DNA of 13,769 bases from Candidatus Thorarchaeota archaeon (lineage in GTDB: Archaea; Asgardarchaeota; Thorarchaeia; Thorarchaeales; Thorarchaeaceae): NCBI GenBank assembly GCA_016839605.1, contig JAEOTX010000224.1:1-13769 (forward strand), written 5' to 3'. Numbering within the stretch: the first letter of the stretch is position 1; each line of letters begins with the position of its first letter. The notes under the pieces were generated by a model that was not told the DNA's origin, did not search any database, and was given only the letters and a program-made list of their open reading frames with translations. The translations under genes were made by a program, and so were the position numbers. Below, piece after piece: positions 1-13,769 of this stretch.

Positions 1-2710
1 CAATCAACCAGTCAGCCGTCTTGATGACCTCTAGATTGTGTTCGACCAAGATGACTGTGTTGCCTCCCTCTACTAACCGATTCAAAACACGAAGTAGCAC
101 ATGAACGTCAGAAGCCGAGAGACCGGTAGTGGGCTCATCGAGTAAGTAAAGCGTCTGTCCTGTGCTCCGTCGTGAGAGTTCTGAGGCGATCTTCATCCGT
201 TGACTCTCGCCGCCTGAGAGTGTGGTTGCAGGCTGTCCGAGTTCCAAATAACCAAGTCCGACGGCCACTAACGTTGAAAGCTTGTCTGCAACTTTCGGAA
301 TGTCACGGAAGAACTCGAGAGCTTCTTCGATTGTCATTGATAAGACTTCAGTGATGTTCTTGCCCTTGTAGGTCACCTCAAGGGTCTCCCTATCAAAGCG
401 GTCGCCCTTGCACACATCACAGGTCATGAAAACATCGCTCATGAAGTGCATCTCAACCCTGAGCACTCCACTTCCTTTGCACTTCTCACATCGACCCTCC
501 CGTGTATTGAAAGAGAATCTACCAATGGAGAATCCTCTAGCCTTGGCCTCAGGCATCTGTGCGAATAGGGCTCGGATCGATGCGAAGGTCTTCGTGTACG
601 TCGCGGGGTTTGATCTTGGTGTTCTGCCGATGGGCGACTGGTCAACCAATACCAATCTATCGATATGTTCCATCCCCTCAATCTCATCATGCGCTCCTGG
701 AACCGGACCGGTTCCTTCCATCCCCCGACGTAGTGCTCTATACAGGGTTTCATAGGTCAGTGTGCTCTTGCCGCTCCCTGAAACACCAGTCACGCCGATG
801 AGCTTGCCTAATGGGAACTCCACTGTGATATTCTTGAGATTATGCTGGCTCGCACCTTTCAGTACTATTTTCTCCCCATTGCCTTCTCTTCTCATATTTG
901 GTACAGGAATCTGCTTCTTTCCAGCGAGATATTGTGCGGTGAGTGACTTTGGATCTGTCAGGACATCAGCTGGAGGCCCCTCTGCCACTACACGTCCGCC
1001 ATGAATACCTGCTAGTGGACCAAGGTCGATGATGTGGTCAGCCGCCTCTATCGTATCACGATCGTGTTCTATAACCACAACAGTATTGCCAAGAGACCTC
1101 AGATGATAGAAGGTCTCGATGAGGCGGTTGATGTCGCGTGGATGGAGCCCAATCGATGGCTCGTCGAGGCAGTAAAGTACTCCTGTAAGAGCCGAACCAA
1201 TCTGAGTCGCAAGTCGTATTCTCTGACTCTCGCCACCTGAGAGGCTCATTGACAGTCTATCCAGATTCAAATATTCGAGACCCACAGAGATGAGGAACTT
1301 CAATCGAGCCCGTATCTCCTTCAAGACAAGTTCTGCAATCTTCATCTCACGTTCTGTTAGGTCGATCCTCTCGAAGAAGTCGGAAGCTTCTTCGATTGTC
1401 ATTGATGTCACAACATCGATCGGCTTGCCACTTACCGTGACTGCAAGACTCTGAGGCTTGAGCTTCCTTCCGCCGCATGACTCACATGCCATCTTTCGCG
1501 AGAGGACATTCGCGATATAGCCGGCTCGATACTGGTACCATTGCTTCTCGCTAGATTTTCCATCCTCGAAGACTTTCTCCAGCCAAGGTATAAGGCCAAG
1601 CCACTTTCGAGTAATCTCCCATTGGGATGAGTCAGTACGCTGTATGTAGTGGAGTGTTATCTCAGGTCTTCCCCATAGCAGGGTTTCACGTTGAGCCTTG
1701 TTTAGTTCAGAGTAAGGAGTGTCTAATGTGAAGCCAATTTGTTCACCAAGTGCTTCAAGACGACGAGTGAACCACGGCCTATCAGAGCCGTTCACTCTCC
1801 TGCTTATGTCATGGATGGTCATAGACTTGCTGGGTATCACGAGATCTGAGTCAACCGCCATTGTAACTCCGAGGCCATTGCATGTCGTACAAGCTCCGTC
1901 TGGCCGGTTATAGGAGAACGCTTTGGGGCTGAGCTTCTCATATTGAAGGCCGCATTTAGGACACATCAGCTGCTCTGCAAACATAAGGTCAGGTTCCCCC
2001 TCTCTTGCTATGACAGCTGCTCCCTCACCAGTTTCCAGTGCGGTCTCTAGAGACCCTATGAGTCTCTCTCGAACTTTATGGCTGATCTCAAGGCGGTCTA
2101 CAACTACCTCGATGTCATGCTTCTTTCGACCATCAATCTCAATGCCATCGATTTCTTGGATATCGCCATCCACACGCACCCTAGCAAAGCCATTCTTCAG
2201 CAAACCCTGCAGGATCTCTTCATGCCTTCCTGCTTCATCTCTTACAACAGGAGCAAGAACAAAGACTCGATGTCCACCGTTCTCATCGAGGAGGAGTCGT
2301 GCAGCTGATTCAGCAGTCAACTGCTCCATGGCTCGTCCGCACTCGACACAATGGGGGATGCCGATATTGGCATAAAGAAGACGCAGATAGTCATGGATTT
2401 CTGTACTAGTACCGACCGTCGACCTAGGGTTCTTCGTCCTGCCCTTTTGTTCAATCGAGATGGCTGGAGGAAGTCCTGTTATCTTGTCCACCTTTGGCTT
2501 GTCTAGTCTACCAAGGAAACGCCTTGCGTAAGATGATAGTGACTCGACATATCTCCTCTGTCCTTCTGCAAAGATTGTGTCAAAGACTAGTGTGGACTTG
2601 CCTGAACCTGAGGGCCCAGTCACGACAACTAGTCTGTCTCGCGGGATGTCTACGTCGACTTTCTTGAGGTTGTGTTCCTCAGCCTGACGAACCTTGATGA
2701 AGCCAGTCAA
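1..2710 (-). CDS. uvrA: Excinuclease ABC subunit A, second paralog (UvrA-2); 3' end runs off the window (903 codons visible)
   Basis: Not in the ORF track. Manual translation from TTG at 2710-2708 is open to position 2: [58 protein letters not shown]... It has both Walker A motifs ([18 protein letters not shown]), both signatures (LSGGESQR twice), both Walker B motifs ([24 protein letters not shown]), six CxxC zinc motifs (CVEC, CPKC, CTTC, CESC, CEKC, CDVC), NPRSTVGT and [16 protein letters not shown]. It ends at ...[14 protein letters not shown] at the edge, about 40 aa short of the C-terminus by comparison with UvrA-1. Confidence 0.97.
320..341. repeat. 22-bp exact direct repeat, copy 1 (agcttcttcgattgtcattgat); partner at 1385-1406
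   Basis: Read directly from the sequence. It encodes SMTIEEA in the second ABC half of UvrA-2. Confidence 0.9.
1385..1406. repeat. 22-bp exact direct repeat, copy 2; partner at 320-341
   Basis: Identical string, encoding SMTIEEA at the homologous position in the first ABC half of UvrA-2. Confidence 0.9.
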
Positions 2711-5595
2711 TCCTTCGCACCTCCCACCGCCACTAAGTCCTTCAGATATCTCCCAGTGAAAGAGGTCTTCTTCCTCACGATATCCTCCGGTGTACCTTCA
2801 GCGACAACATACCCGCCTTCGTCCCCGCCTTCAGGTCCGAGATCAATGACCCAATCAGCTGTCTTCACAACATCCAGCTGATGCTCTATCACGAGAACTG
2901 TGTTTCCAAGGTCGACAAGGCGATGTAACACTTCTAGAAGCTTCTTAATGTCTGCGAAATGAAGGCCTGTTGTAGGTTCGTCGAGCATTATCAATGTCTG
3001 CCCTGTCGCAGGTCGTGACAGAAACTTGCTGAGCTTGACACGCTGGGCTTCTCCACCCGAGAGAGTTGTAGCTGGTTGGCCTAGCTTAATGTAGCCCATT
3101 CCTACCGCACATAGAGTTTCGAGGCGCCTATGAATCGAAGGAATACCTTCGAAGAACGCTACTGCTTCGTCTATTCTCATGTCAAGGATGTCTGCGATGT
3201 TCTTCCCCTTGAATCGAACCTGTAGAGTTTCTCTATTGTACCGACGTCCCTTGCACTCAGTGCAGGTCACCTGAACGGGAGGGAGGAACTGCATCTCAAT
3301 AATCTCGACTCCTGCTCCACGGCACTTCTCACAACGCCCGCCCTTGACATTGAAACTGAATCGTCCAGGTTTATACCCGCGAATCTGTGACTCTGGAAGG
3401 CTTGAGAACATCTCCCGAAGAGGACTCCATAGTCCAACATATGTTGCTGGATTTGAGCGTGGTGTCCGGCCGATGGGACTCTGATCAATCACAATCACTT
3501 TGTCAAGCTGCTCTGCACCAGCAATCGCGTCATGGGCTCCTGGCTTTTTCTCGGCTTTGTGGAACCTTCGAGCCAGCTCCCTCTGGAGCGTTTCTACGAT
3601 GAGGCTTGACTTCCCGCTCCCTGACACTCCTGTCACTGCAATGAACATGCCAAGAGGAAATCTGATGTTTATATTCTTGAGGTTGTTATGTCTGGCGCCT
3701 TGCACCTCTATGAACCGACCATTTGGGCCTCTTCGTTTCTCAGGGACAGGAATCTCAACCTCGCCTCGGAGGTACTTCGCCGTGATCGATTCCCTTGACT
3801 TCAGAATCCTACTCAAATCGCCAGCCACTACGACCTCGCCACCCTCTGCCCCTGCGCCTGGTCCAAGGTCGACAATATAGTCAGCGCTCTTCATTGTTTC
3901 CTCATCATGCTCGACGACTAAGACAGTGTTACCGAGGTCTCGCAGTCGCATCAAGGAGTTGAGGAGCCTTTGATTGTCTCGTGCATGCAAACCAATAGAG
4001 GGTTCATCACAAACATAGGTCACTCCGACCAGGTTCGAGCCTATCTGACTAGCAAGGCGGATGCGTTGAGCTTCACCACCCGCGAGAGACGGAGCAGTCC
4101 TGTTCAGCGTCAAATAGTCAAGACCAACGTCTCTCAGAAAGCCTATCCTTCCCATGATCTCTCTGAGGATGGGGTCAGCCACTGGTTCAAAGCGTGGATC
4201 TATCTTGACATTGCTGAAGAACTCCTGAAGGCCTTTCACTGATAGGACATCAAGATCTGCAATGGAACGACCACCAAAGGTTATTGCCTGTGATTCTGGC
4301 CTGAGCCGATTGCCGTTGCAAGTGGGGCAGGTCACTTCTGACATGTACCGAGACTCGATCTGTTTTCGAATATACTCAGACTTAGTTTGAGCGTAATTTC
4401 TTACAGCATGCTGCATCCATCCTTCGAAAGGACGCCTGAAGGTTCCGGAATAGGTGACACCATATTCCTCATTCCCGCCTTCCCATGTGGACTCAAAGGT
4501 CTCTTTGCCTGTCCCATGGAGAAGTATTTTCTGCTGCTTCTTTGTGAGGTCTTTCCATTTCGTGTCGAGTGTGAAACCATACTTTTCTGCTACCTTTTTC
4601 AGGCGACTTCGTTTCAACTTCCATTGGTAACCCTTGAGAGCACCTTCACGGATGGTCAGTTCAGGATCCTCGATGAACCTCTCAGCATGAAATTCGCGAA
4701 TTGTACCCATACCTGTGCACTGAGGACATGCACCCTGAGGTGTGTTCCAAGAGAAGATTCGAGGCTCCATCTCTGGCAGACTGATTCCGCAGTCAACACA
4801 GGCGAATTGCTCTGATAGAGTGACGTCACCATCCGATTTCGAGATGACCACAACACCTTCAGCCATATTCAGTGAGGTCTCTACTGCTTCTGAGATTCGA
4901 CCCCGCTCAGATGGCTTCACTCGTACCCTATCAATGACCACCTCAATAGTGTGCTCAAAGTAGCGGTCAAGTGACATTCCTTCCTCAATATCCTTGAGTT
5001 CGCCATCCACTCGGGCTCGGATGTAACCTTTCTTGAGGAGGGCTTTGAATTCTCTGCGATACTCTCCCTTTCTTCCCCTGACAATGGGAGCCATAATCAT
5101 GATTCGAGTGCCTTCCTCAAACTGGAGGATGTTGTCCACAATTTGCTGTGAGGTCTGTGGCTCAATTTTCTTTCCGCACTCAGGACAGTGAGGCTCACCA
5201 ACTCTCGCATAGAGTAGTCGTAGGAAGTCGTAGATCTCAGTTATTGTGCCAACCGTCGACCGAGGGTTCCTACCAACACTCTTCTGGTCAATCGATATCG
5301 AAGGTGAGAGGCCAGACATGAAATCTACTTTGGGTTTCTCAAGCATCCCAAGAAACTGACGTGCATAAGGCGAGAGAGACTCCACGAATCTTCGCTGACC
5401 TTCTGCAAAGATAGTGTCAAAGACCAGGCTTGACTTCCCACTGCCCGAAACCCCAGTAACTACTGTGAGGGTGTTCTTTGGAATCTCCACGTCGATGTGC
5501 CGCAGATTGTGTTCTGCAGCACCCATGACGACGATGGACCTCGGTCCGTCGAACTCAGTTGGGTCACCCTTGCGTTTCTTTGTCGCAGCCTTCAC
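2707..5595 (-). CDS. uvrA: Excinuclease ABC subunit A (UvrA-1), 962 aa
   Basis: Two GVSGSGKSS Walker A motifs, [24 protein letters not shown], an intact UvrB-binding domain (APIVRGRKG...GYIRARVDG...VIDR), signatures LAGGEAQR and [16 protein letters not shown] and DEPTTGLH, and three zinc modules. The GTG start overlaps the uvrB TGA. Confidence 0.98.
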   Translation of the reverse strand: MKAATKKRKGDPTEFDGPRSIVVMGAAEHNLRHIDVEIPKNTLTVVTGVSGSGKSSLVFDTIFAEGQRRFVESLSPYARQFLGMLEKPKVDFMSGLSPSISIDQKSVGRNPRSTVGTITEIYDFLRLLYARVGEPHCPECGKKIEPQTSQQIVDNILQFEEGTRIMIMAPIVRGRKGEYRREFKALLKKGYIRARVDGELKDIEEGMSLDRYFEHTIEVVIDRVRVKPSERGRISEAVETSLNMAEGVVVISKSDGDVTLSEQFACVDCGISLPEMEPRIFSWNTPQGACPQCTGMGTIREFHAERFIEDPELTIREGALKGYQWKLKRSRLKKVAEKYGFTLDTKWKDLTKKQQKILLHGTGKETFESTWEGGNEEYGVTYSGTFRRPFEGWMQHAVRNYAQTKSEYIRKQIESRYMSEVTCPTCNGNRLRPESQAITFGGRSIADLDVLSVKGLQEFFSNVKIDPRFEPVADPILREIMGRIGFLRDVGLDYLTLNRTAPSLAGGEAQRIRLASQIGSNLVGVTYVCDEPSIGLHARDNQRLLNSLMRLRDLGNTVLVVEHDEETMKSADYIVDLGPGAGAEGGEVVVAGDLSRILKSRESITAKYLRGEVEIPVPEKRRGPNGRFIEVQGARHNNLKNINIRFPLGMFIAVTGVSGSGKSSLIVETLQRELARRFHKAEKKPGAHDAIAGAEQLDKVIVIDQSPIGRTPRSNPATYVGLWSPLREMFSSLPESQIRGYKPGRFSFNVKGGRCEKCRGAGVEIIEMQFLPPVQVTCTECKGRRYNRETLQVRFKGKNIADILDMRIDEAVAFFEGIPSIHRRLETLCAVGMGYIKLGQPATTLSGGEAQRVKLSKFLSRPATGQTLIMLDEPTTGLHFADIKKLLEVLHRLVDLGNTVLVIEHQLDVVKTADWVIDLGPEGGDEGGYVVAEGTPEDIVRKKTSFTGRYLKDLVAVGGAKD
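2718..2724 (-). promoter_or_regulatory. Shine-Dalgarno GGAGGTG for uvrA-2, inside the last codons of uvrA-1
   Basis: The minus strand reads GGGAGGTG-CGAAGGA-TTG, a strong SD 7 nt before the TTG that overlaps the uvrA-1 TGA. Confidence 0.8.
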
Positions 5596-7577
5596 GTTCC
5601 GTTGCCCTCAACCTTCTTTCTCAAATCCATAATCTGGTCACGAAGTTTAGCTGCTCGTTCGAACTCTAGGTTCCTAGCAGCCTCCTTCATCTGCTCTTCT
5701 AGGTCAATGATATAGTCCATCATGTCTTCGATCTCTAAGGGATCGAAGTCACCAATCTCAGTCTGTACTGTCTTCTCCAGCCGCACAATGCCTTCAGCGA
5801 TATCACGGATATCTTTCACAATGGTTCGTGGCTCGATGTTGTGTTCCTCATTGAACTTGACCTGATAGCTCCTTCTGCGATTTGTCTCATCTATGGCACT
5901 CTGCATGGCATTCGACACATGATCTCCGTATAGGATGACTCGACCACGTACATTTCGCGAGGCGCGACCCATTGTCTGAATAAGTGCCCAGTCTGTTCTG
6001 AGGAATCCTTCCTTATCAGCATCAAGAACCGCAACAAGACCTACTTCAGGAAGGTCGAGGCCTTCCCGTAATAGATTGATACCAACAAGGACATCAAACT
6101 TGCCCTGCCTGAGCTGTCGAATAATCTCAATTCTCTCAACTGTGCCAATGTCTGAGTGGAGATACCTCGCCTTGATACCAGCTTCAACAAGATACTCCGA
6201 CAACATCTCAGCTGTCTTCTTTGTGAGTGTGGTCACGAGGACTCGATCTCGATCAGCTGTCGTCTTCTTTATCTCACCCAGTAAATGGTCAACCTGTCCT
6301 ACGACTGGACGAACTGTGATGTCCGGGTCTAGAAGACCTGTCGGTCTTAGGAGCTGCTCAACAATCTGGCCGCTCGCTTTTCGCTCGAATGGACCTGGTG
6401 TGGCACTGGTGTACACAACATGTTTCATGTACTTCTCAAACTCGTCAAACTTCATTGGTCGATTGTCAAATGCGGATGGCAGCCTGAAGCCAAAGTCAAC
6501 TAGATTCCTTTTTCGAGAGAGGTCTCCGTTGTGCATTCCTCGAATTTGCGGGATTGTCATATGGCTCTCATCAAGAATCATCAGGAAGTCTTCAGGGAAG
6601 TAATCCAGCAATGTGTAGGGCTTCTCGCCCTTGTTTCGCCCATCAATGTACCGAGAATAGTTCTCAATCCCTTGAGTCCTTCCGGTTTCCCTCATCATCT
6701 CCATATCATAGAGAGTGCGTCGTTTGAGCCGGTCCGCCTCTACAAGCTTACCTTGCTGCCTGAACCACTCAACACGCTCCCGCATCTCCTGCTCAATGGC
6801 ATCCAGAGAGTCTGTGATTCGTTCATAACGAGCAATGTGGTGTCTAGCTGGGAATAGCTCAACCCATTTCATGCTCTCTAAACGTCTTGAAGTCAGGGCT
6901 TCGAGGACTGATATTCTCTCAACAACATCACCATCGAGCTCGATTCTGATACTATTCCGAGAAGCAGATGGACATACATCTATAACATCACCTCGAACGC
7001 GAAATGATCCTGGCTTAACCTCCATGTCATTTCGGTCGTACTGCATTGCTACGAGTTTCTCAAGCAGACTTCGTCTGTCAATCTCTTTTCCAACCTCTAC
7101 CATCATTCTGAAATAGTCATATTCTGATGGATTACCAACTCCATAGATGCAAGACACAGAGGCAACCACAATAACATCCGTTCGAGACCTCAGTGAGTGT
7201 GTCGCTGAGTGCCGGAGGCGTTCAATCTCCTCGTTTATGTCAGCTTCCTTCTCAATGTACATGTCCTTTGATGGCACATATGCTTCTGGCTGGTAGTAAT
7301 CATAATAGGAAACAAAGTATTCCACAGCTGCATTGGGGAAGAACTGCCGATACTCTGAGGCCAGCTGTGCAGCGAGGGTCTTGTTGTGAGAGATAACCAG
7401 AGTAGGCTTGTTGTACTTCTCAATCACATTAGCCATGGTGAATGTCTTGCCACTCCCTGTGACTCCCAGGAGCGTCTGTTGCATGAGACCGCTCTCGAGA
7501 CCCTCCACTAGTTTATCAATCGCCTGTGGCTGATCGCCTGTGGGTTCAAAGGGGGCCACCAGTTTGAACTCTGCCAT
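5592..7577 (-). CDS. uvrB: Excinuclease ABC subunit B (UvrB); preferred start ATG 7577 (661 aa), alternative GTG 7607 (671 aa)
   Basis: PTGDQPQAI, Walker A GVTGSGKT, HNKTLAAQL, beta-hairpin YYDYYQPEAY, DESH, GFRLPSAFDNRP, SATPG, GINLLREGLDLPEV, DADKEGFLR, QTMGRASRN, and the C-terminal UVR coiled coil LEEQMKEAARNLEFERAAKLRDQI. ATG 7577 has GAGGT 8 nt upstream and begins the conserved N-terminus (MAEFKLVAPF). Confidence 0.98.
   Translation of the reverse strand: MAEFKLVAPFEPTGDQPQAIDKLVEGLESGLMQQTLLGVTGSGKTFTMANVIEKYNKPTLVISHNKTLAAQLASEYRQFFPNAAVEYFVSYYDYYQPEAYVPSKDMYIEKEADINEEIERLRHSATHSLRSRTDVIVVASVSCIYGVGNPSEYDYFRMMVEVGKEIDRRSLLEKLVAMQYDRNDMEVKPGSFRVRGDVIDVCPSASRNSIRIELDGDVVERISVLEALTSRRLESMKWVELFPARHHIARYERITDSLDAIEQEMRERVEWFRQQGKLVEADRLKRRTLYDMEMMRETGRTQGIENYSRYIDGRNKGEKPYTLLDYFPEDFLMILDESHMTIPQIRGMHNGDLSRKRNLVDFGFRLPSAFDNRPMKFDEFEKYMKHVVYTSATPGPFERKASGQIVEQLLRPTGLLDPDITVRPVVGQVDHLLGEIKKTTADRDRVLVTTLTKKTAEMLSEYLVEAGIKARYLHSDIGTVERIEIIRQLRQGKFDVLVGINLLREGLDLPEVGLVAVLDADKEGFLRTDWALIQTMGRASRNVRGRVILYGDHVSNAMQSAIDETNRRRSYQVKFNEEHNIEPRTIVKDIRDIAEGIVRLEKTVQTEIGDFDPLEIEDMMDYIIDLEEQMKEAARNLEFERAAKLRDQIMDLRKKVEGNGT
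5605..5609 (-). promoter_or_regulatory. Weak SD-like motif (GAGGG) for uvrA-1
   Basis: Minus strand GGTTGAGGG-CAACGGAAC-GTG, 9 nt spacing. Confidence 0.45.
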
Positions 7578-7585
7578 CTGCTCCG

Positions 7586-7590
7586 ACCTC
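7586..7590 (-). promoter_or_regulatory. SD motif GAGGT for uvrB (ATG 7577)
   Basis: Minus strand GAGAGGT-CGGAGCAG-ATG. Confidence 0.6.
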
Positions 7591-7615
7591 TCGTCAGTGT
7601 CGCTCACACCTGACT

Positions 7616-7822: not shown

Positions 7823-10800
7823 TTATTCCAGCTCTTTTCTCTTGACAGTTACTACAATGATACTGAGTGTGATTGCAGCTAGGCATCCAATCAGTGATAC
7901 AGTAATCACCATTCGTGCAACCCTTGCTTCCATACTCGGTGGCACCTCAGGGGGAGGTGGCGGAATTGGTGGGCGCTGATCGTCTGATAAAACATAGAGA
8001 TGTGAACCACTATATGCTGCAATGTCCAGAGAGTCCTTGGAACTGGCTCCATCAAAATGTCCAACCACCGGATTCAATATTGCCTCGTTCCGAACATAGT
8101 GCCATAGGAAATCACCTGTGTGCCCATCTATGACGTTGATATACTCATGATTGGTGAAGACCATGTCTGTATGACCATCGCTATTCATGTCACCAAACAC
8201 GCAGGTTGAGTACTGTGACCAAGGTTCGTATAGAGGATATCTCATTAGAGCGTTATAACTCCAGACAATTGCACTAGAATCGTCGTATCCACGTACGCCT
8301 AGATACCTGAGATTCAACACTAGTTCATCCACACCATCATTAAGATACACATCAGCGGCATGGATCTCTCTTATTGATGCTCCTGGAGACACAGAGTACA
8401 TCTCATCTTCAACAGATGGGTGTGTATCTATTACTCTGACTTGCATACCTGAGCTCAATGCAAAGTCCTCATTGCTATCTGCGTTGAAGTAACCCGCATC
8501 GATCTCCTCGATGTCTGCGAACATATTGTACTCCCACATGTAAGCACCTGTGGCACCATTGTACACACGAGCAATGTTCTCATCTCCGCCAAAGACTGCA
8601 TCCAGGGTGAATAGACCTCTGAAGTGTCCTACTGCCAGATGGTTATTATCATCAGTGGAGTTGACACTGGACGTGTATCGATATGTATCGCCATTGTACC
8701 ACGCGAGATATGCCTCAGAACCAAATGGTTTCTCAAAGAGAACAACTATCTCATCTCCTAGGTATATGGCATTGAAGTCCCCTATATAGTAATCAACAAT
8801 CTGGAATCCTGCGGGTGCATAGATATATCCCAGTTTGGCATATGTTTCTCCTTCTGCTAGCCCAATTGTGTCTTCATCGATACGAAACGCAAAGTCAGTG
8901 TTGCCTGAATTGTCGATGTCACCGAACCGTACCATGTCTATTTGATTCCCACTAGAAATTGAAGTCATCATTGTACCAGTGTAGGCATCCCAAATTGCTA
9001 TGCGGTCATCATCATATCTGATGAACACCTCGTCATACTCATCGTGGTCAAGATCAGCCGCCCAAGCTCCCTGAATTGTAGAACCAATATCCGCATCCCA
9101 ATATGGAATGTGTGCCAGGTATTGCGGTTCTATTGAAGGACCTGAAAAATCGAGGCCATCAAATGCATCAAGGTACGAGGATAACGGTTCTGCAGGGTAG
9201 TTCCAATAGAGAGTCACAACCGAGTCCTCACCATCATCATCAAAGTCAGCAGAGGCCAATAGACCAAGCTCATCCTCGATGAAGTTGACCCATAATGGAA
9301 GACCACTCCTACCATCCACAACCGCCAGAGCAGTACCATTAACGCCTATGGCTAGGTCTATTCCTCCAGAACCACCAAAATGGCCAGATGTAGCACTGAC
9401 CTGGAATAGACTGTATGAATCAGGTGTAACAAGCTCTGCGTCATAGTGCCATTGCGTCCTTAGAGTGCCAACTTCAACAAGATATGCCCCTCCGTCCTTA
9501 GTGAGGACGAAGACCTCAGCTTCATTATCTCCATCAAAGTCATCAACTATCAAGTTCATGAGTCTTGCATCCACTGTGGAGTTGTAGAAGATAGATTCTG
9601 ATACAACATCCACAATTCTCATCATGACATCGTTACCAAACAGGACATCATCGTATCCATCTAGATTGAAGTCATACGCCTCCATTGGTTGTCGTCCAAA
9701 GCTATGACCAACCAGGTCATTTGGTGATTCATAGAGAAGGGTGCCGTCTAATGGATTGATGACCTTCACAGCATAGGTATCGTTTGCATAAGCAACTCCA
9801 AGTATTGAGTCATCTGTGAAATCACCAACAACCAATCCCCAGATATCACCGGCATCCACTGATTCGCTGTGCCAGAGGTCTCCAGTATTGTTGACAACCC
9901 ATATCACACCATCCTCGGAACCAACAACGACTTCTTTGAATCCATTACCATCAATGTCTCCGATATCCATGTCTTCGATGTCAGCACTAAACACAGTGCA
10001 ATTCCAGAGCAATTGTCCGTCTGATCCATTGTATGCAAGAAGGAATTGCTCCCCCCATTGGACACATACGATTTCTTGCGTACCATCACCATCTAGGTCT
10101 GATAACTCTAAGGACAATAGCGTGGTGTCATGAGTGACATTCCATCCAATACTGCCATCATCATCTATCATGTATAGATTCATTCGAGGTGAGCCCGTCA
10201 ATACTGAGAATACTACCTCATCCTTAGAGTCCCCGTCGACATCTCCACTATCCAATACATATCCAGCTACACCGCCATAGAGATAGAGCGATGATGCTTT
10301 CATAGATGTCTTAAACCCGCTAGCACCATGTGATGGATCTCTATACTCCCAGACAAACACCTCCCCTCGTTCACAGGAAACCCCGATCTCTTCCCATCCA
10401 TTATGGTCTGAGTCATAGACGGTTAATCCTGTGATATCATATATGAACGGGTCAGAGAGATATGTCTCTTCGTATGTCATATATCCTGATCCATTTGTGG
10501 AATGAACCATCTCGTAGACTGCCATCGTTGAGTCATATGACACAATGACCTCACGTCTGCCATCTGAGTCAGTGTCGCCGACGACCATGTTCGAAACATC
10601 ACGAAGATGGTTGTCGACCCAATCACTTGATGGATTATAGCCCCAGATAGCATCTGGATTTGGTGTTCCTCCCCAGTCAAAGATGTTGAATGCCTGAAGA
10701 TAGAGGAATCCAGTATCTAGATGACCAAGCACAGTGGGCGAATAAGTCATAGGACCACTATATGGCATGCCGCCAATATCATAATACACGAGACCTGGGT

Positions 10801-13769
10801 ATCCTGGAAAATCGAGCCTGTCTAGGTAATCGGGATAGGTATTGAGGTGGTTCTGATCACTCCATGTAGAACCGTTGTCAACACTTGCCACCATCCCGGT
10901 TCGTCTCTCAAACGGTGCACCCCCAACCTCGTAAGCAATGACGATTGGATTGCCCTCGCTCCTCAAATAGTCAATATCAGGGTACATCTCATCATAGAAG
11001 GAGTCAGTTGCTCTATGAGGGATACTATTGTTGAAGTTGAAGGACGCGTTAGTATGCATCGACCAGATATCGTAGTCACCCTTACTCGTCATTGTGTTGA
11101 TTGCAGACATTGCTATCTCAAAATCCCCATTTGGCATTTGGATGACTGATGCCTTCTGTATGTCGAAGTAGTCCCAGCCTGGGTAGGTAAGAAGATATGG
11201 ACCACTCCTCTCAGAGAGGTCTTCTTTCATGAGGTAGTAGTATGCTTCCGAAGTATCGATTTCAGATTTGACATACATGATTCCGATATGTGTAGAGTTG
11301 TAGATGAACACCTCTGGGTGATTCCTACTTGCTAGACTTTCAGTATTGTTCATTACCCATACAGGATCACTCCACCACGTATCTCCAGTGCCAAATCTGG
11401 AGACCCAAAAGTCATTCTGGCCCCAGTCACGTTCTGCTTTCCATGTAAGCCAGATTGCATTGTCGCTGCTTGTTATTGATGGTTGAGCCTCAGAAACAAC
11501 GGTGACATCATTGTAGTCTCCAGAAATTGTCTGACCGATAAATGGTACTAAAGGTACCGTATTGACTTGAAGTGATGTTGTATTCAGACCCTTTACGTAA
11601 AGCTGTTCATTGTTTACTAGCACCATCACCGCTATATCACTCGCAGCATCTAGAGCATAGGTCATATCACTAGCACATCGGTTAGTGAAAGTTAGTGTGT
11701 CAATTCCAGAAAATAGAATGGACTCGAGTTGGATGTTTGGATAATTGGGAGAAGAGGTTACTTTCGCAGCATTGATGTATTCCTCTGAACTAGCATCCCA
11801 CTCCATGATGTCAAAGCCCTTTGTGTGACCAATGATGACTTCAAGGTTTGAGTCGTAGTCCTGATCATCAATCAGAACGACACTCACAGGATTCAATGTG
11901 ACGATATCAGAAGCTGCCTCCCATACCTTCTGGAAAGTCCCACCCCAACACTCGTAGATGTATACAAATCCATCATGTTGTGTAACTCTGGTATCGTAGA
12001 CTCCGCCCAGGATAATCTCTGGGTGACTGTCTCTATCTGTATCACCGACTGCTAGACTCCTGATGTCAGCGCCCTGATAGGGGTCAGCTCCATCAGGATT
12101 GCCAAGGAGATAGTAGCGACCATCGACATCACCCGTTCTTCCAAAGTAGTCATTGAGTTCAAGCCCGCTGAATGAATCCACATCAATGTTAAAGACAAAT
12201 AGGAAAGGTCCCACAGCGACAACAAGATCTCTTCGACCATCACTGTCCATATCAATTCCTGCTTCTATGGCAGTTATCTCAGTTACGTCCTCCCATGCAA
12301 CAGATTCTACATCTAGGTAACCAAGATCTCTCAAGTCAAAAGAGTAGGCGAGTTCAATAGTATCATCTATTCCTGTCGCCTCATAGATGTAGACTTGTAG
12401 ATCACTGGTGATGATTAACTCTGCTAATCCATCCTGATCAAGATCAGTGCCAGTCAACAGATGTTTTGCATGGTCCCATATCCGTCTATTGAATTCACCA
12501 GAGATTCCCTCGAGCTGTTGGTATGCATATGGACTGGACTCACTGATTTCCGTGTGGTTGAGATCGTGTGAGCGGAACATTCGCTTGTATGTAGCATTTG
12601 AAAGGTGTTCAAAGGCATAGACATTGTTATCATAATCACCAACTACAATCTCGCCTCTTCCATCACCATCGAGGTCTCCGGATGAAATTGTCATGGTCCA
12701 GTCTTCTAGATCAAAGTCTGTGTTCCATGATTCATGCATGTGATATCCCAGATTCCTGAATGACTCACTTTTCATCAGGCAGAAGTCCATCCTCGAAACA
12801 CGTGGATATGTAGCGACTAGATATGTGTCGATGGCGTCATAGTGAGAGATTGCCCATCTGAGGGAACCAATATCCTCCTGATATGCAGCAAGTGAAAAGT
12901 CACCATTTAGTTCAATGCCTTGGCTCTCAGCGATATTCTGGAGCGTATATCCTCCAGTATTAGGAACTAACCGTATGTCTTTCAGCTTAAGCAATGTCAT
13001 AGCTGTATCTGTATCAGGATTATTGAAAATGCGCCGGTCTTCATGCCAAACAGGTTTGTCATATGTACCCTTGTTCAGGAAACATGTGGCACCATATTTG
13101 TTATCATAGCTGAGAATTAGGTCAAGGACACCATCGCCATTGATGTCAACCAATTGAGGTTGCCCCCAGAGGATGCTTCCAGTATTGAGATTGATTTCGT
13201 CAAAGTACCCAGCTTCAAATTGGAGGATTTGAGCACCTGTTTCTGAGAACATATTCCTAGCCATGTATACAAACCCATTTGATATGACCATGTCAAGGTC
13301 CCCATCATTGTCATAATCACCGAAACTCATCCTTGGAGTGGCCTGTGACATTGAAAGAATCTGAGCTATCTGGCCGGTCCAGTCAAAGGTCTTGATAGAA
13401 CCTAGCTCCATGAAGTCCTCAAATGGTGTGTTGCGGTAGTAGAAGATGATGTTAGACCTGCTACTCCACGCTGTCGGGTCTGCATATCTTCCATCTGGAC
13501 TGTACCCACCAACAACAACCATAGGCATGAGACCCTGAGGCGTTGCTGGCCAGAGATTCACAATTTCTGCAGATGTGTAGTCGTGTTGTGATAGTGTTGC
13601 CGATAGCCTACCAGTCATTGTGAAGTCTGTCTCTCCTGAAACATCAAGGGCAGTTACAACACTTGCGTCTGTTCCTACGAAATAATACGGCTGACCGTTT
13701 CCGCCCATAGATATCGGACTGGGAACTCCGTTTGTCCAAGAGTTGTAGCTTCCGATATGGGGATTTATG
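7823..13769 (-). CDS. Giant FG-GAP/VCBS-like calcium-blade multi-beta-propeller surface protein with C-terminal membrane anchor (5' end outside the window, at least 1981 aa)
   Basis: The frame stays open upstream of the track's ATG 13708 to the window edge (INPHIGSYNSWTNGVPSPIS-M). About 25 DxDxDG-like loops (GDYDNDGDLD, GDLDGDGRGE, SDLDGDGTQE, GDMNSDGHTD and others), PQQ-repeat-like blade ends (YNGSDGQLLW, VDGRSGLPLW, IDGHTGDFLW), Asp-box SVDNGSTW, PPIPPPPPEVPP linker (7937-7972), 23-aa hydrophobic helix (7844-7912), tail KRKELE, TAA at 7823-7825. Confidence 0.93.
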   Translation of the reverse strand, partial: INPHIGSYNSWTNGVPSPISMGGNGQPYYFVGTDASVVTALDVSGETDFTMTGRLSATLSQHDYTSAEIVNLWPATPQGLMPMVVVGGYSPDGRYADPTAWSSRSNIIFYYRNTPFEDFMELGSIKTFDWTGQIAQILSMSQATPRMSFGDYDNDGDLDMVISNGFVYMARNMFSETGAQILQFEAGYFDEINLNTGSILWGQPQLVDINGDGVLDLILSYDNKYGATCFLNKGTYDKPVWHEDRRIFNNPDTDTAMTLLKLKDIRLVPNTGGYTLQNIAESQGIELNGDFSLAAYQEDIGSLRWAISHYDAIDTYLVATYPRVSRMDFCLMKSESFRNLGYHMHESWNTDFDLEDWTMTISSGDLDGDGRGEIVVGDYDNNVYAFEHLSNATYKRMFRSHDLNHTEISESSPYAYQQLEGISGEFNRRIWDHAKHLLTGTDLDQDGLAELIITSDLQVYIYEATGIDDTIELAYSFDLRDLGYLDVESVAWEDVTEITAIEAGIDMDSDGRRDLVVAVGPFLFVFNIDVDSFSGLELNDYFGRTGDVDGRYYLLGNPDGADPYQGADIRSLAVGDTDRDSHPEIILGGVYDTRVTQHDGFVYIYECWGGTFQKVWEAASDIVTLNPVSVVLIDDQDYDSNLEVIIGHTKGFDIMEWDASSEEYINAAKVTSSPNYPNIQLESILFSGIDTLTFTNRCASDMTYALDAASDIAVMVLVNNEQLYVKGLNTTSLQVNTVPLVPFIGQTISGDYNDVTVVSEAQPSITSSDNAIWLTWKAERDWGQNDFWVSRFGTGDTWWSDPVWVMNNTESLASRNHPEVFIYNSTHIGIMYVKSEIDTSEAYYYLMKEDLSERSGPYLLTYPGWDYFDIQKASVIQMPNGDFEIAMSAINTMTSKGDYDIWSMHTNASFNFNNSIPHRATDSFYDEMYPDIDYLRSEGNPIVIAYEVGGAPFERRTGMVASVDNGSTWSDQNHLNTYPDYLDRLDFPGYPGLVYYDIGGMPYSGPMTYSPTVLGHLDTGFLYLQAFNIFDWGGTPNPDAIWGYNPSSDWVDNHLRDVSNMVVGDTDSDGRREVIVSYDSTMAVYEMVHSTNGSGYMTYEETYLSDPFIYDITGLTVYDSDHNGWEEIGVSCERGEVFVWEYRDPSHGASGFKTSMKASSLYLYGGVAGYVLDSGDVDGDSKDEVVFSVLTGSPRMNLYMIDDDGSIGWNVTHDTTLLSLELSDLDGDGTQEIVCVQWGEQFLLAYNGSDGQLLWNCTVFSADIEDMDIGDIDGNGFKEVVVGSEDGVIWVVNNTGDLWHSESVDAGDIWGLVVGDFTDDSILGVAYANDTYAVKVINPLDGTLLYESPNDLVGHSFGRQPMEAYDFNLDGYDDVLFGNDVMMRIVDVVSESIFYNSTVDARLMNLIVDDFDGDNEAEVFVLTKDGGAYLVEVGTLRTQWHYDAELVTPDSYSLFQVSATSGHFGGSGGIDLAIGVNGTALAVVDGRSGLPLWVNFIEDELGLLASADFDDDGEDSVVTLYWNYPAEPLSSYLDAFDGLDFSGPSIEPQYLAHIPYWDADIGSTIQGAWAADLDHDEYDEVFIRYDDDRIAIWDAYTGTMMTSISSGNQIDMVRFGDIDNSGNTDFAFRIDEDTIGLAEGETYAKLGYIYAPAGFQIVDYYIGDFNAIYLGDEIVVLFEKPFGSEAYLAWYNGDTYRYTSSVNSTDDNNHLAVGHFRGLFTLDAVFGGDENIARVYNGATGAYMWEYNMFADIEEIDAGYFNADSNEDFALSSGMQVRVIDTHPSVEDEMYSVSPGASIREIHAADVYLNDGVDELVLNLRYLGVRGYDDSSAIVWSYNALMRYPLYEPWSQYSTCVFGDMNSDGHTDMVFTNHEYINVIDGHTGDFLWHYVRNEAILNPVVGHFDGASSKDSLDIAAYSGSHLYVLSDDQRPPIPPPPPEVPPSMEARVARMVITVSLIGCLAAITLSIIVVTVKRKELE

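Follow-up and report, generated by a model that had tools for sequence, protein, structure and literature searches.

The stretch of DNA considered here (the window) comprises 13,769 nucleotides of a Candidatus Thorarchaeota archaeon (GenBank assembly GCA_016839605.1, contig JAEOTX010000224.1) and represents the entire contig C172 of a 3.08-Mb metagenome-assembled genome (MAG) with a completeness of 80% and a contamination of 4.6%. Open reading frame (ORF) calling on the window revealed three co-oriented genes on the minus strand, uvrB and two different uvrA genes, uvrA-1 and uvrA-2, the products of which are termed A1 and A2 in the following. For uvrB (5592–7607), the ORF starting with GTG at 7607 encodes 671 amino acids (aa); as the protein has 660–662 aa in relatives, the ATG at 7577, yielding 661 aa, is the likely start. 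The uvrA-1 gene (2707–5595) encodes a complete class I UvrA of 962 aa, and uvrA-2 (2–2710) encodes a further class I UvrA, 903 aa of which lie within the window. Only the last ~50 codons of uvrA-2 are missing, because the window is a whole contig ending inside this gene, so that the ORF runs off the contig end. A preliminary description of this DNA had noted that the three genes are adjacent and co-oriented and overlap by four nucleotides each, and this proved correct. At the uvrB/uvrA-1 junction (5592–5609, minus strand), start and stop codon overlap in GTGA (5592–5595), and a GAGGG motif is located at 5605–5609. The uvrA-1/uvrA-2 junction (2707–2725, minus strand) features a TTGA overlap (2707–2710) and a Shine-Dalgarno-like GGGAGGT motif (2719–2725). 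Both junctions thus have a GGAGG-like motif 8–10 nucleotides upstream. The start codon of uvrA-2 (2708–2710, minus strand) is TTG here, and most relatives have an ATG or a GTG in this overlap.

UvrB scores 1008 bits with the NCBIfam model NF003673 (cut-off 743). Both UvrA proteins surpass the cut-off of the UvrA equivalog model NF001503 (1147 bits), A1 with 1396.5 bits and A2, despite its missing C-terminal end, with 1258.0 bits. The same holds true for TIGR00630 (1326 and 1224 bits, respectively; cut-off 729.8). That both proteins keep all domains had been claimed before and is confirmed by the presence of a UvrB-binding domain (PF17760) and an insertion (DNA-binding) domain (PF17755) in each of them. 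In A1, these domains span residues 147–254 (4834–5157, 128 bits) and 306–414 (4354–4680, 81.9 bits), in A2 residues 135–236 (2003–2308, 95.4 bits) and 287–388 (1547–1852, 61.3 bits), all on the minus strand. The UvrB-binding domains of A1 and A2 are recognized by profile, and both proteins may bind UvrB. Walker A, signature, Walker B and H-loop of the two ABC ATPase modules are intact in both UvrAs, with GxSGSGKS and LSGGE occurring twice, DEPS/DEPT and EH, and these motifs are conserved in 17–18 orthologues each. The three zinc modules with four cysteines each retain every CxxC pair in A1, in A2 and across the Thorarchaeota. We looked for a degenerate ATPase site in A1 and A2 and found none, so neither partner shows signs of being catalytically dead. 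Taken individually, A1 and A2 are ordinary class I UvrA proteins by all sequence criteria that we applied. A class II identity of A2 was considered and rejected, its UvrB-binding domain and first zinc module both being present. A1 and A2 share only 48% identity over 907 residues, and the pair is therefore neither an assembly repeat nor the product of a recent duplication, in agreement with the preliminary description.

In a scan of species-representative genomes, the order uvrB-uvrA1-uvrA2 was found in about 45 Thorarchaeota loci, including two closed chromosomes (CP070761 and CP070658). Wherever the contig continues, both uvrA genes are present and adjacent; they are two ORFs in all of these loci and one never occurs alone. 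The sister family also has the tandem pair, with its A2 split over two contigs. The preliminary description had proposed such a survey of gene neighbourhoods and had named a broken or sporadic uvrA-2 in relatives as an argument against its reading. Instead, A2 measures 945–964 aa in Thorarchaeota relatives and 952–953 aa, intact, in the closest (93%-identical) ones. The pair is present in each of the eight further genera of the family that were sampled first and in most genomes of the family within a sample of 201 genomes from the phylum, the exceptions being mostly fragmented assemblies. Among 15 relatives examined, 13 exhibit an NTGA overlap between uvrA-1 and uvrA-2, in many cases with a GGAGG-like motif upstream, and most also share the four-nucleotide overlap between uvrB and uvrA-1. 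In one Thorarchaeota MAG (CAYWJO010000015.1), uvrB and uvrA-1 do not overlap and are separated by a gap of ~2 kb that may represent an insertion. Downstream of uvrA-2, relatives carry a gene for a 151-aa tetratricopeptide repeat (TPR) protein and then a complete uvrC. Ratios of nonsynonymous to synonymous substitution rates (dN/dS) relative to the closest relative amount to 0.030 for A1, 0.031 for A2 and 0.023 for uvrB. These sequence comparisons show that A1 and A2 are both old, intact and subject to strong purifying selection. The genome studied here has one uvrB gene only, and no further class I uvrA was found in this 80%-complete assembly. The lineages of the phylum sample differ in their state of uvrA: the split pair is the form present in Thorarchaeota, a fused protein of 1916–1972 aa consisting of two full units is encoded in two other families, which belong to the Heimdallarchaeota, and most other Asgard lineages possess a single uvrA, some of them with extra class II-like copies.

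A search with A2 against representatives yielded more than 100 clusters (50% identity) of double-length UvrA-like proteins. These proteins dominated the matches because scores add over two units, and no close single-length relatives surfaced in this search. The double-length architectures comprise two full units, a full unit combined with a unit lacking the insertion domain, and two class II-like units. The fused proteins included in our trees of A1 and A2 were obtained from this search and stem from Heimdallarchaeota, Chloroflexota, Planctomycetota and Spirochaetota. The main tree resulted from an unconstrained, careful maximum likelihood search under LG+C20+F+G4 (40 rows, 938 columns). Here, A1 clusters together with the N-halves of the fused proteins (98/95, supports given as ultrafast bootstrap (UFBoot)/Shimodaira-Hasegawa-like approximate likelihood ratio test (SH-aLRT)) and A2 with the C-halves (98/94), with a sister relationship between the two clades (92/97); these supports are approximate, the bootstrap not being fully converged and two C-halves being long-branched. 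In both subtrees, Thorarchaeota are sister to the fused group, resulting in a mirrored topology. Such a pattern would be expected if an old duplication had taken place once and a single fusion or, alternatively, a single fission in the ancestor of Thorarchaeota had followed. The preliminary description had called for a UvrA phylogeny and had interpreted the locus as a two-gene version of a double-length UvrA, and this interpretation is matched by the position of A1 and A2 in separate clades with the fused halves. When three topologies were directly compared under LG+G4, the tree with a clade of A2 and C-halves was best; both trees constrained for a single clade scored above the free tree, which was uninformative by itself, as the free tree was poorly searched. 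On the best LG+G4 tree, a 44-row clade of A1, A2 and both sets of halves receives an SH-aLRT value of 99.2. A1 is also sister to the N-halves of one fused group, with a support of 99, in a FastTree analysis of 139 rows and in a quick LG+G4 tree of 62 rows. At eight sites, only one of the two lineages (Thorarchaeota gene together with a fused half) retains the canonical residue; all eight fit an affiliation of A1 with N-halves and of A2 with C-halves and none fits the cross pairing. This screen applied the softer criterion of a canonical residue being kept or lost, and strict screens for derived residues or indels common to A2 and C-halves found almost nothing. It is well supported by these sequence analyses that uvrA-1 and uvrA-2 are the unfused counterparts, i.e. 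orthologues, of the N- and C-halves of double-length UvrA and go back to a single ancient duplication of a class I uvrA gene.

Dimer-interface residue pairs have been published for Ct-UvrA (PMC12796330) and were mapped onto the UvrA alignment. In 17 of 17 pairs, the self-contacting Y55 is changed to Phe in A1 and retained as Tyr in A2, and the mixed Tyr/Phe combination is present in ten out of 15 fused proteins. Gln65, the residue inserted into the DNA helix at its centre (PMC12796330), is replaced by Arg in every A2, in six of 15 C-halves, in one N-half only and in none of 19 canonical UvrAs; the replacement never affects both halves of the same fused protein. A2 has Pro in place of Ser82, a residue that does not vary among canonical UvrAs. 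A1 and the N-halves no longer have a conserved aromatic residue of the zinc-finger hairpin (Ct 760), which is retained in A2 and most C-halves, and other changes in the hairpin are common to A2 and the C-halves. The one-sided changes at the dyad fit an arrangement in which A1 would face A2 across a normal interface. The insertion domain and the UvrB-binding domain are the most diverged regions. For the latter, identity to canonical UvrA amounts to 42% in A1, 35% in N-halves, 36% in A2 and 25% in C-halves, and the domain of A2 is 69% conserved within the Thorarchaeota. A canonical Arg-Lys pair in this domain (residues 175–176 of A1) is kept in A1 and the N-halves and lost in A2 and the C-halves. 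A further conserved change of the Thorarchaeota A2 proteins concerns the D-loop region of the distal ATPase site. At residues 878–881 (window about 68–79, minus strand), GLSASD follows the second Walker B motif, in place of the GLHFxD of canonical UvrA, A1 and the fused halves.

Most likely, the operon encodes bacterial-type nucleotide excision repair with a damage sensor composed of two different subunits. From the fusion in other lineages, the translational coupling, the strict co-occurrence and the residue patterns at the dimer axis, we infer with a probability of about 60% that the damage sensor of Thorarchaeota is an A1:A2 heterodimer, which would constitute a split form of the single-chain, pseudo-dimeric UvrA. 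Coupled translation would provide A1 and A2 in about equal amounts, along with UvrB, and the two proteins would pair through the usual UvrA dimer interface in ATP-binding domain I, such that the heterodimer takes the place of the canonical UvrA2 homodimer. It would scan DNA and recognize distortions by two non-identical zinc-finger hairpins and insertion domains, before loading the single UvrB, after which UvrC would cut. A division of labour between the two protomers would have begun, with A2 and the fused C-halves changed at the DNA-probing centre of the dimer and in the UvrB-binding domain and A1 and the N-halves remaining nearer to canonical UvrA. Going one step further, the heterodimer may be obligate and hard-wired, with A2 as the lesion-probing partner (Arg instead of the DNA-inserting Gln, altered hairpin and altered UvrB-binding domain) and A1 as the canonical, UvrB-recruiting one. 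We put this forward as a tentative proposal that is clearly less probable than heterodimer formation as such.

A number of points weigh against this picture. With regard to phylogeny, the C-halves are long-branched and some attraction is possible. A Thorarchaeota-specific clade of A1 and A2 is 32 log-likelihood units worse under LG+G4 and is not rejected (p-AU of 0.106 in the approximately unbiased test). In addition, A2 is found on an unresolved backbone in the FastTree (139 rows) and quick LG+G4 (62 rows) analyses. With regard to pairing, a fused N-C chain could itself dimerize N:N and C:C. The Y/F and Q/R patterns are few in number, originate from related sequences and are not significant alone (ten mixed cases observed versus ~8 expected). 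Furthermore, nearly all dimer-interface residues are canonical in A1 as well as in A2, and A2 keeps the canonical Y55/A84 pair; A1:A1 or A2:A2 homodimers are therefore not forbidden. This nearly canonical interface also speaks for two independent homodimers that feed the single UvrB and split lesion range or conditions between them, any heterodimer being incidental. Neither protein has lost a domain or motif that a self-sufficient class I UvrA requires, their divergence centres on the insertion domain and the zinc-finger hairpin that contact lesion and DNA, just as expected for different substrates, and many further UvrA paralogues exist in Asgard genomes. Two homodimers would, however, leave unexplained the fusion of the orthologous pair into a single chain in the sister clade, the strictness of order, four-nucleotide overlap and co-occurrence and the restriction of changes at the dyad axis to one partner, and we consider this alternative rather unlikely. 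Less probable still is a mixed population of A1:A1, A2:A2 and A1:A2, in which the two genes would give rise to three sensors. Both proteins have a largely conserved interface and nothing that we see enforces exclusive pairing, but the fused relatives fix a 1:1 stoichiometry of N- and C-halves.

An accessory role of A2 outside of nucleotide excision repair, comparable to that of the class II proteins UvrA2, DrrC and Ecm16 in drug or damage tolerance without UvrB, would be in line with the further divergence of its UvrB-binding domain as compared with that of A1 and with the loss of the canonical Arg-Lys pair that is retained in A1 and the N-halves. Still, this domain is recognizable and conserved in the Thorarchaeota, A2 passes the UvrA equivalog cut-off and its gene is positioned between uvrA-1 and uvrC in a coupled operon. 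Moreover, a separate, reduced double UvrA-like protein is encoded in the genome. Such a function of A2 therefore appears highly improbable. Finally, an assembly or binning artefact in the form of a chimeric contig or a collapsed duplicate had to be considered, given that the window is a short contig of an incomplete MAG with some contamination. The recurrence of the same arrangement in about 45 independent assemblies, two closed Thorarchaeota chromosomes among them, and the low identity between the two copies exclude this explanation.

Compared with the canonical class I homodimers (Geobacillus stearothermophilus 2R6F/3UWX, Thermotoga maritima 3PIH, Mycobacterium tuberculosis 3ZQJ and the 9GXK series), A1 and A2 have the same length and domain order and share ATPase motifs, three zinc modules as well as UvrB-binding and insertion domains; A2 matches 2R6F with 1028 bits. 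The genes also adjoin uvrB and are part of an operon with uvrC in relatives. In contrast to canonical systems, Thorarchaeota possess two diverged genes instead of one, the predicted assembly is a heterodimer, and lineage-specific, one-sided changes affect the zinc-finger hairpin as well as the dyad (Y55F in A1, Q65R and S82P in A2). The double UvrA of Planctomycetes has been described as two uvrA genes fused together (PMC8567305). Fused UvrA, which measures 1916–1961 aa in Heimdallarchaeota, resembles the Thorarchaeota pair in that complete units corresponding to A1 and A2 follow each other in the same order and have asymmetric substitutions in common. It differs in that the Thorarchaeota proteins are two polypeptides with a stop/start overlap of their genes, whereas the halves of the fused chain are connected by a linker of ~20 residues. 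Moreover, the Thorarchaeota genes have uvrB and uvrC as linked partners, in contrast to the fused Heimdallarchaeota genes examined (L100, L118, L119 and L120), which lack an adjacent uvrB. Fused C-halves are also more degenerate than A2, with 80% as compared to 92% of the canonical residues kept. Class II UvrAs (Deinococcus radiodurans UvrA2 2VF7, DrrC, Ecm16 7SH1) are likewise second UvrA paralogues within one genome, but they have no UvrB-binding domain and work without nucleotide excision repair partners, whereas A2 keeps this domain and is encoded inside the uvr operon. The statement in the preliminary description that the usual second copies lack the UvrB-binding domain agrees with the literature. 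The long UvrA of the Chlamydia type (NCBIfam NF001885/PRK00635, 1809 positions) is also UvrA-derived and consists of two UvrA units. A1 and A2 each match one half of NF001885, with 697 and 655 bits, respectively, far below the cut-off of 3054.

For decades, research on UvrA has dealt with a symmetric homodimer. The fused double form is a known type that is annotated and under-studied. In the literature on UvrA in Thorarchaeota and Asgard archaea and on UvrA paralogues, we found neither a two-gene pair of class I UvrAs nor a UvrA heterodimer described; a 2026 review on Asgards states only that these organisms adopted bacterial UvrABC. Single, split, fused and reduced forms of UvrA occur depending on the lineage; Asgard archaea did not merely take over UvrABC from bacteria. 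Cryo-electron microscopy revealed that the UvrA protomers differ in role on damaged DNA, with recognition and support insertion domains and a UvrA2UvrB1 intermediate, and left open how the damaged strand is chosen (PMC11985968). If the A1:A2 reading is true, the main value of the system would lie in providing a natural asymmetric UvrA for mechanistic work. A two-subunit sensor would allow the ATPase sites, the UvrB-binding domain and the hairpin of each protomer to be mutated independently, which a homodimer does not, and the single-chain fused UvrA of Heimdallarchaeota and several bacterial phyla would offer the same advantage. Should the heterodimer even be obligate and asymmetric, it would represent a natural system in which to ask how UvrA, as a symmetric dimer, resolves a lesion that is asymmetric, and could show which protomer loads the first UvrB.

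The genome contains a third gene of the UvrA family (C98:18126–23042, corresponding to L103:4126–9042, minus strand) that encodes a double-length protein of 1638 aa. The N-terminal unit of this protein keeps a UvrB-binding domain (PF17760, 37.5 bits) and lacks the insertion domain, as judged by BLAST comparison with A1. By the same comparison, the C-terminal unit is devoid of the UvrB-binding domain and covers the region of the insertion domain, such that the two units exhibit complementary losses within one chain. Proteins similar in length and match pattern are present in five further genomes (G005, G011, G015, G020 and G055). Some Thorarchaeota and one other Asgard family (L104, L105 and L113) have an extra, unlinked full-length UvrA of 943–974 aa, which is ~42% identical to A1 and forms a long-branched clade of its own.

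The missing 3' end of uvrA-2 was sought across the rest of the assembly and was not found. The C-terminal 419 aa of UvrC are encoded at the end of another contig of the same genome (C258, 1973–3160). In relatives, uvrC is situated 0.6 kb downstream of uvrA-2, after the gene for the 151-aa TPR protein. C258 is therefore likely to join the beginning of the window, with the last ~50 codons of uvrA-2 falling into an assembly gap between the two contigs. On the other side of the operon, directly upstream of uvrB, the window contains a gene (7823–13708, minus strand) for an FG-GAP/beta-propeller repeat protein of 1961 aa (PF13517, PF01839), which is not found upstream of uvrB in the closest relative (L021). 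The protein ends with a stalk rich in Pro, a single hydrophobic helix and a short tail of basic residues and looks like a giant membrane-anchored archaeal surface protein.

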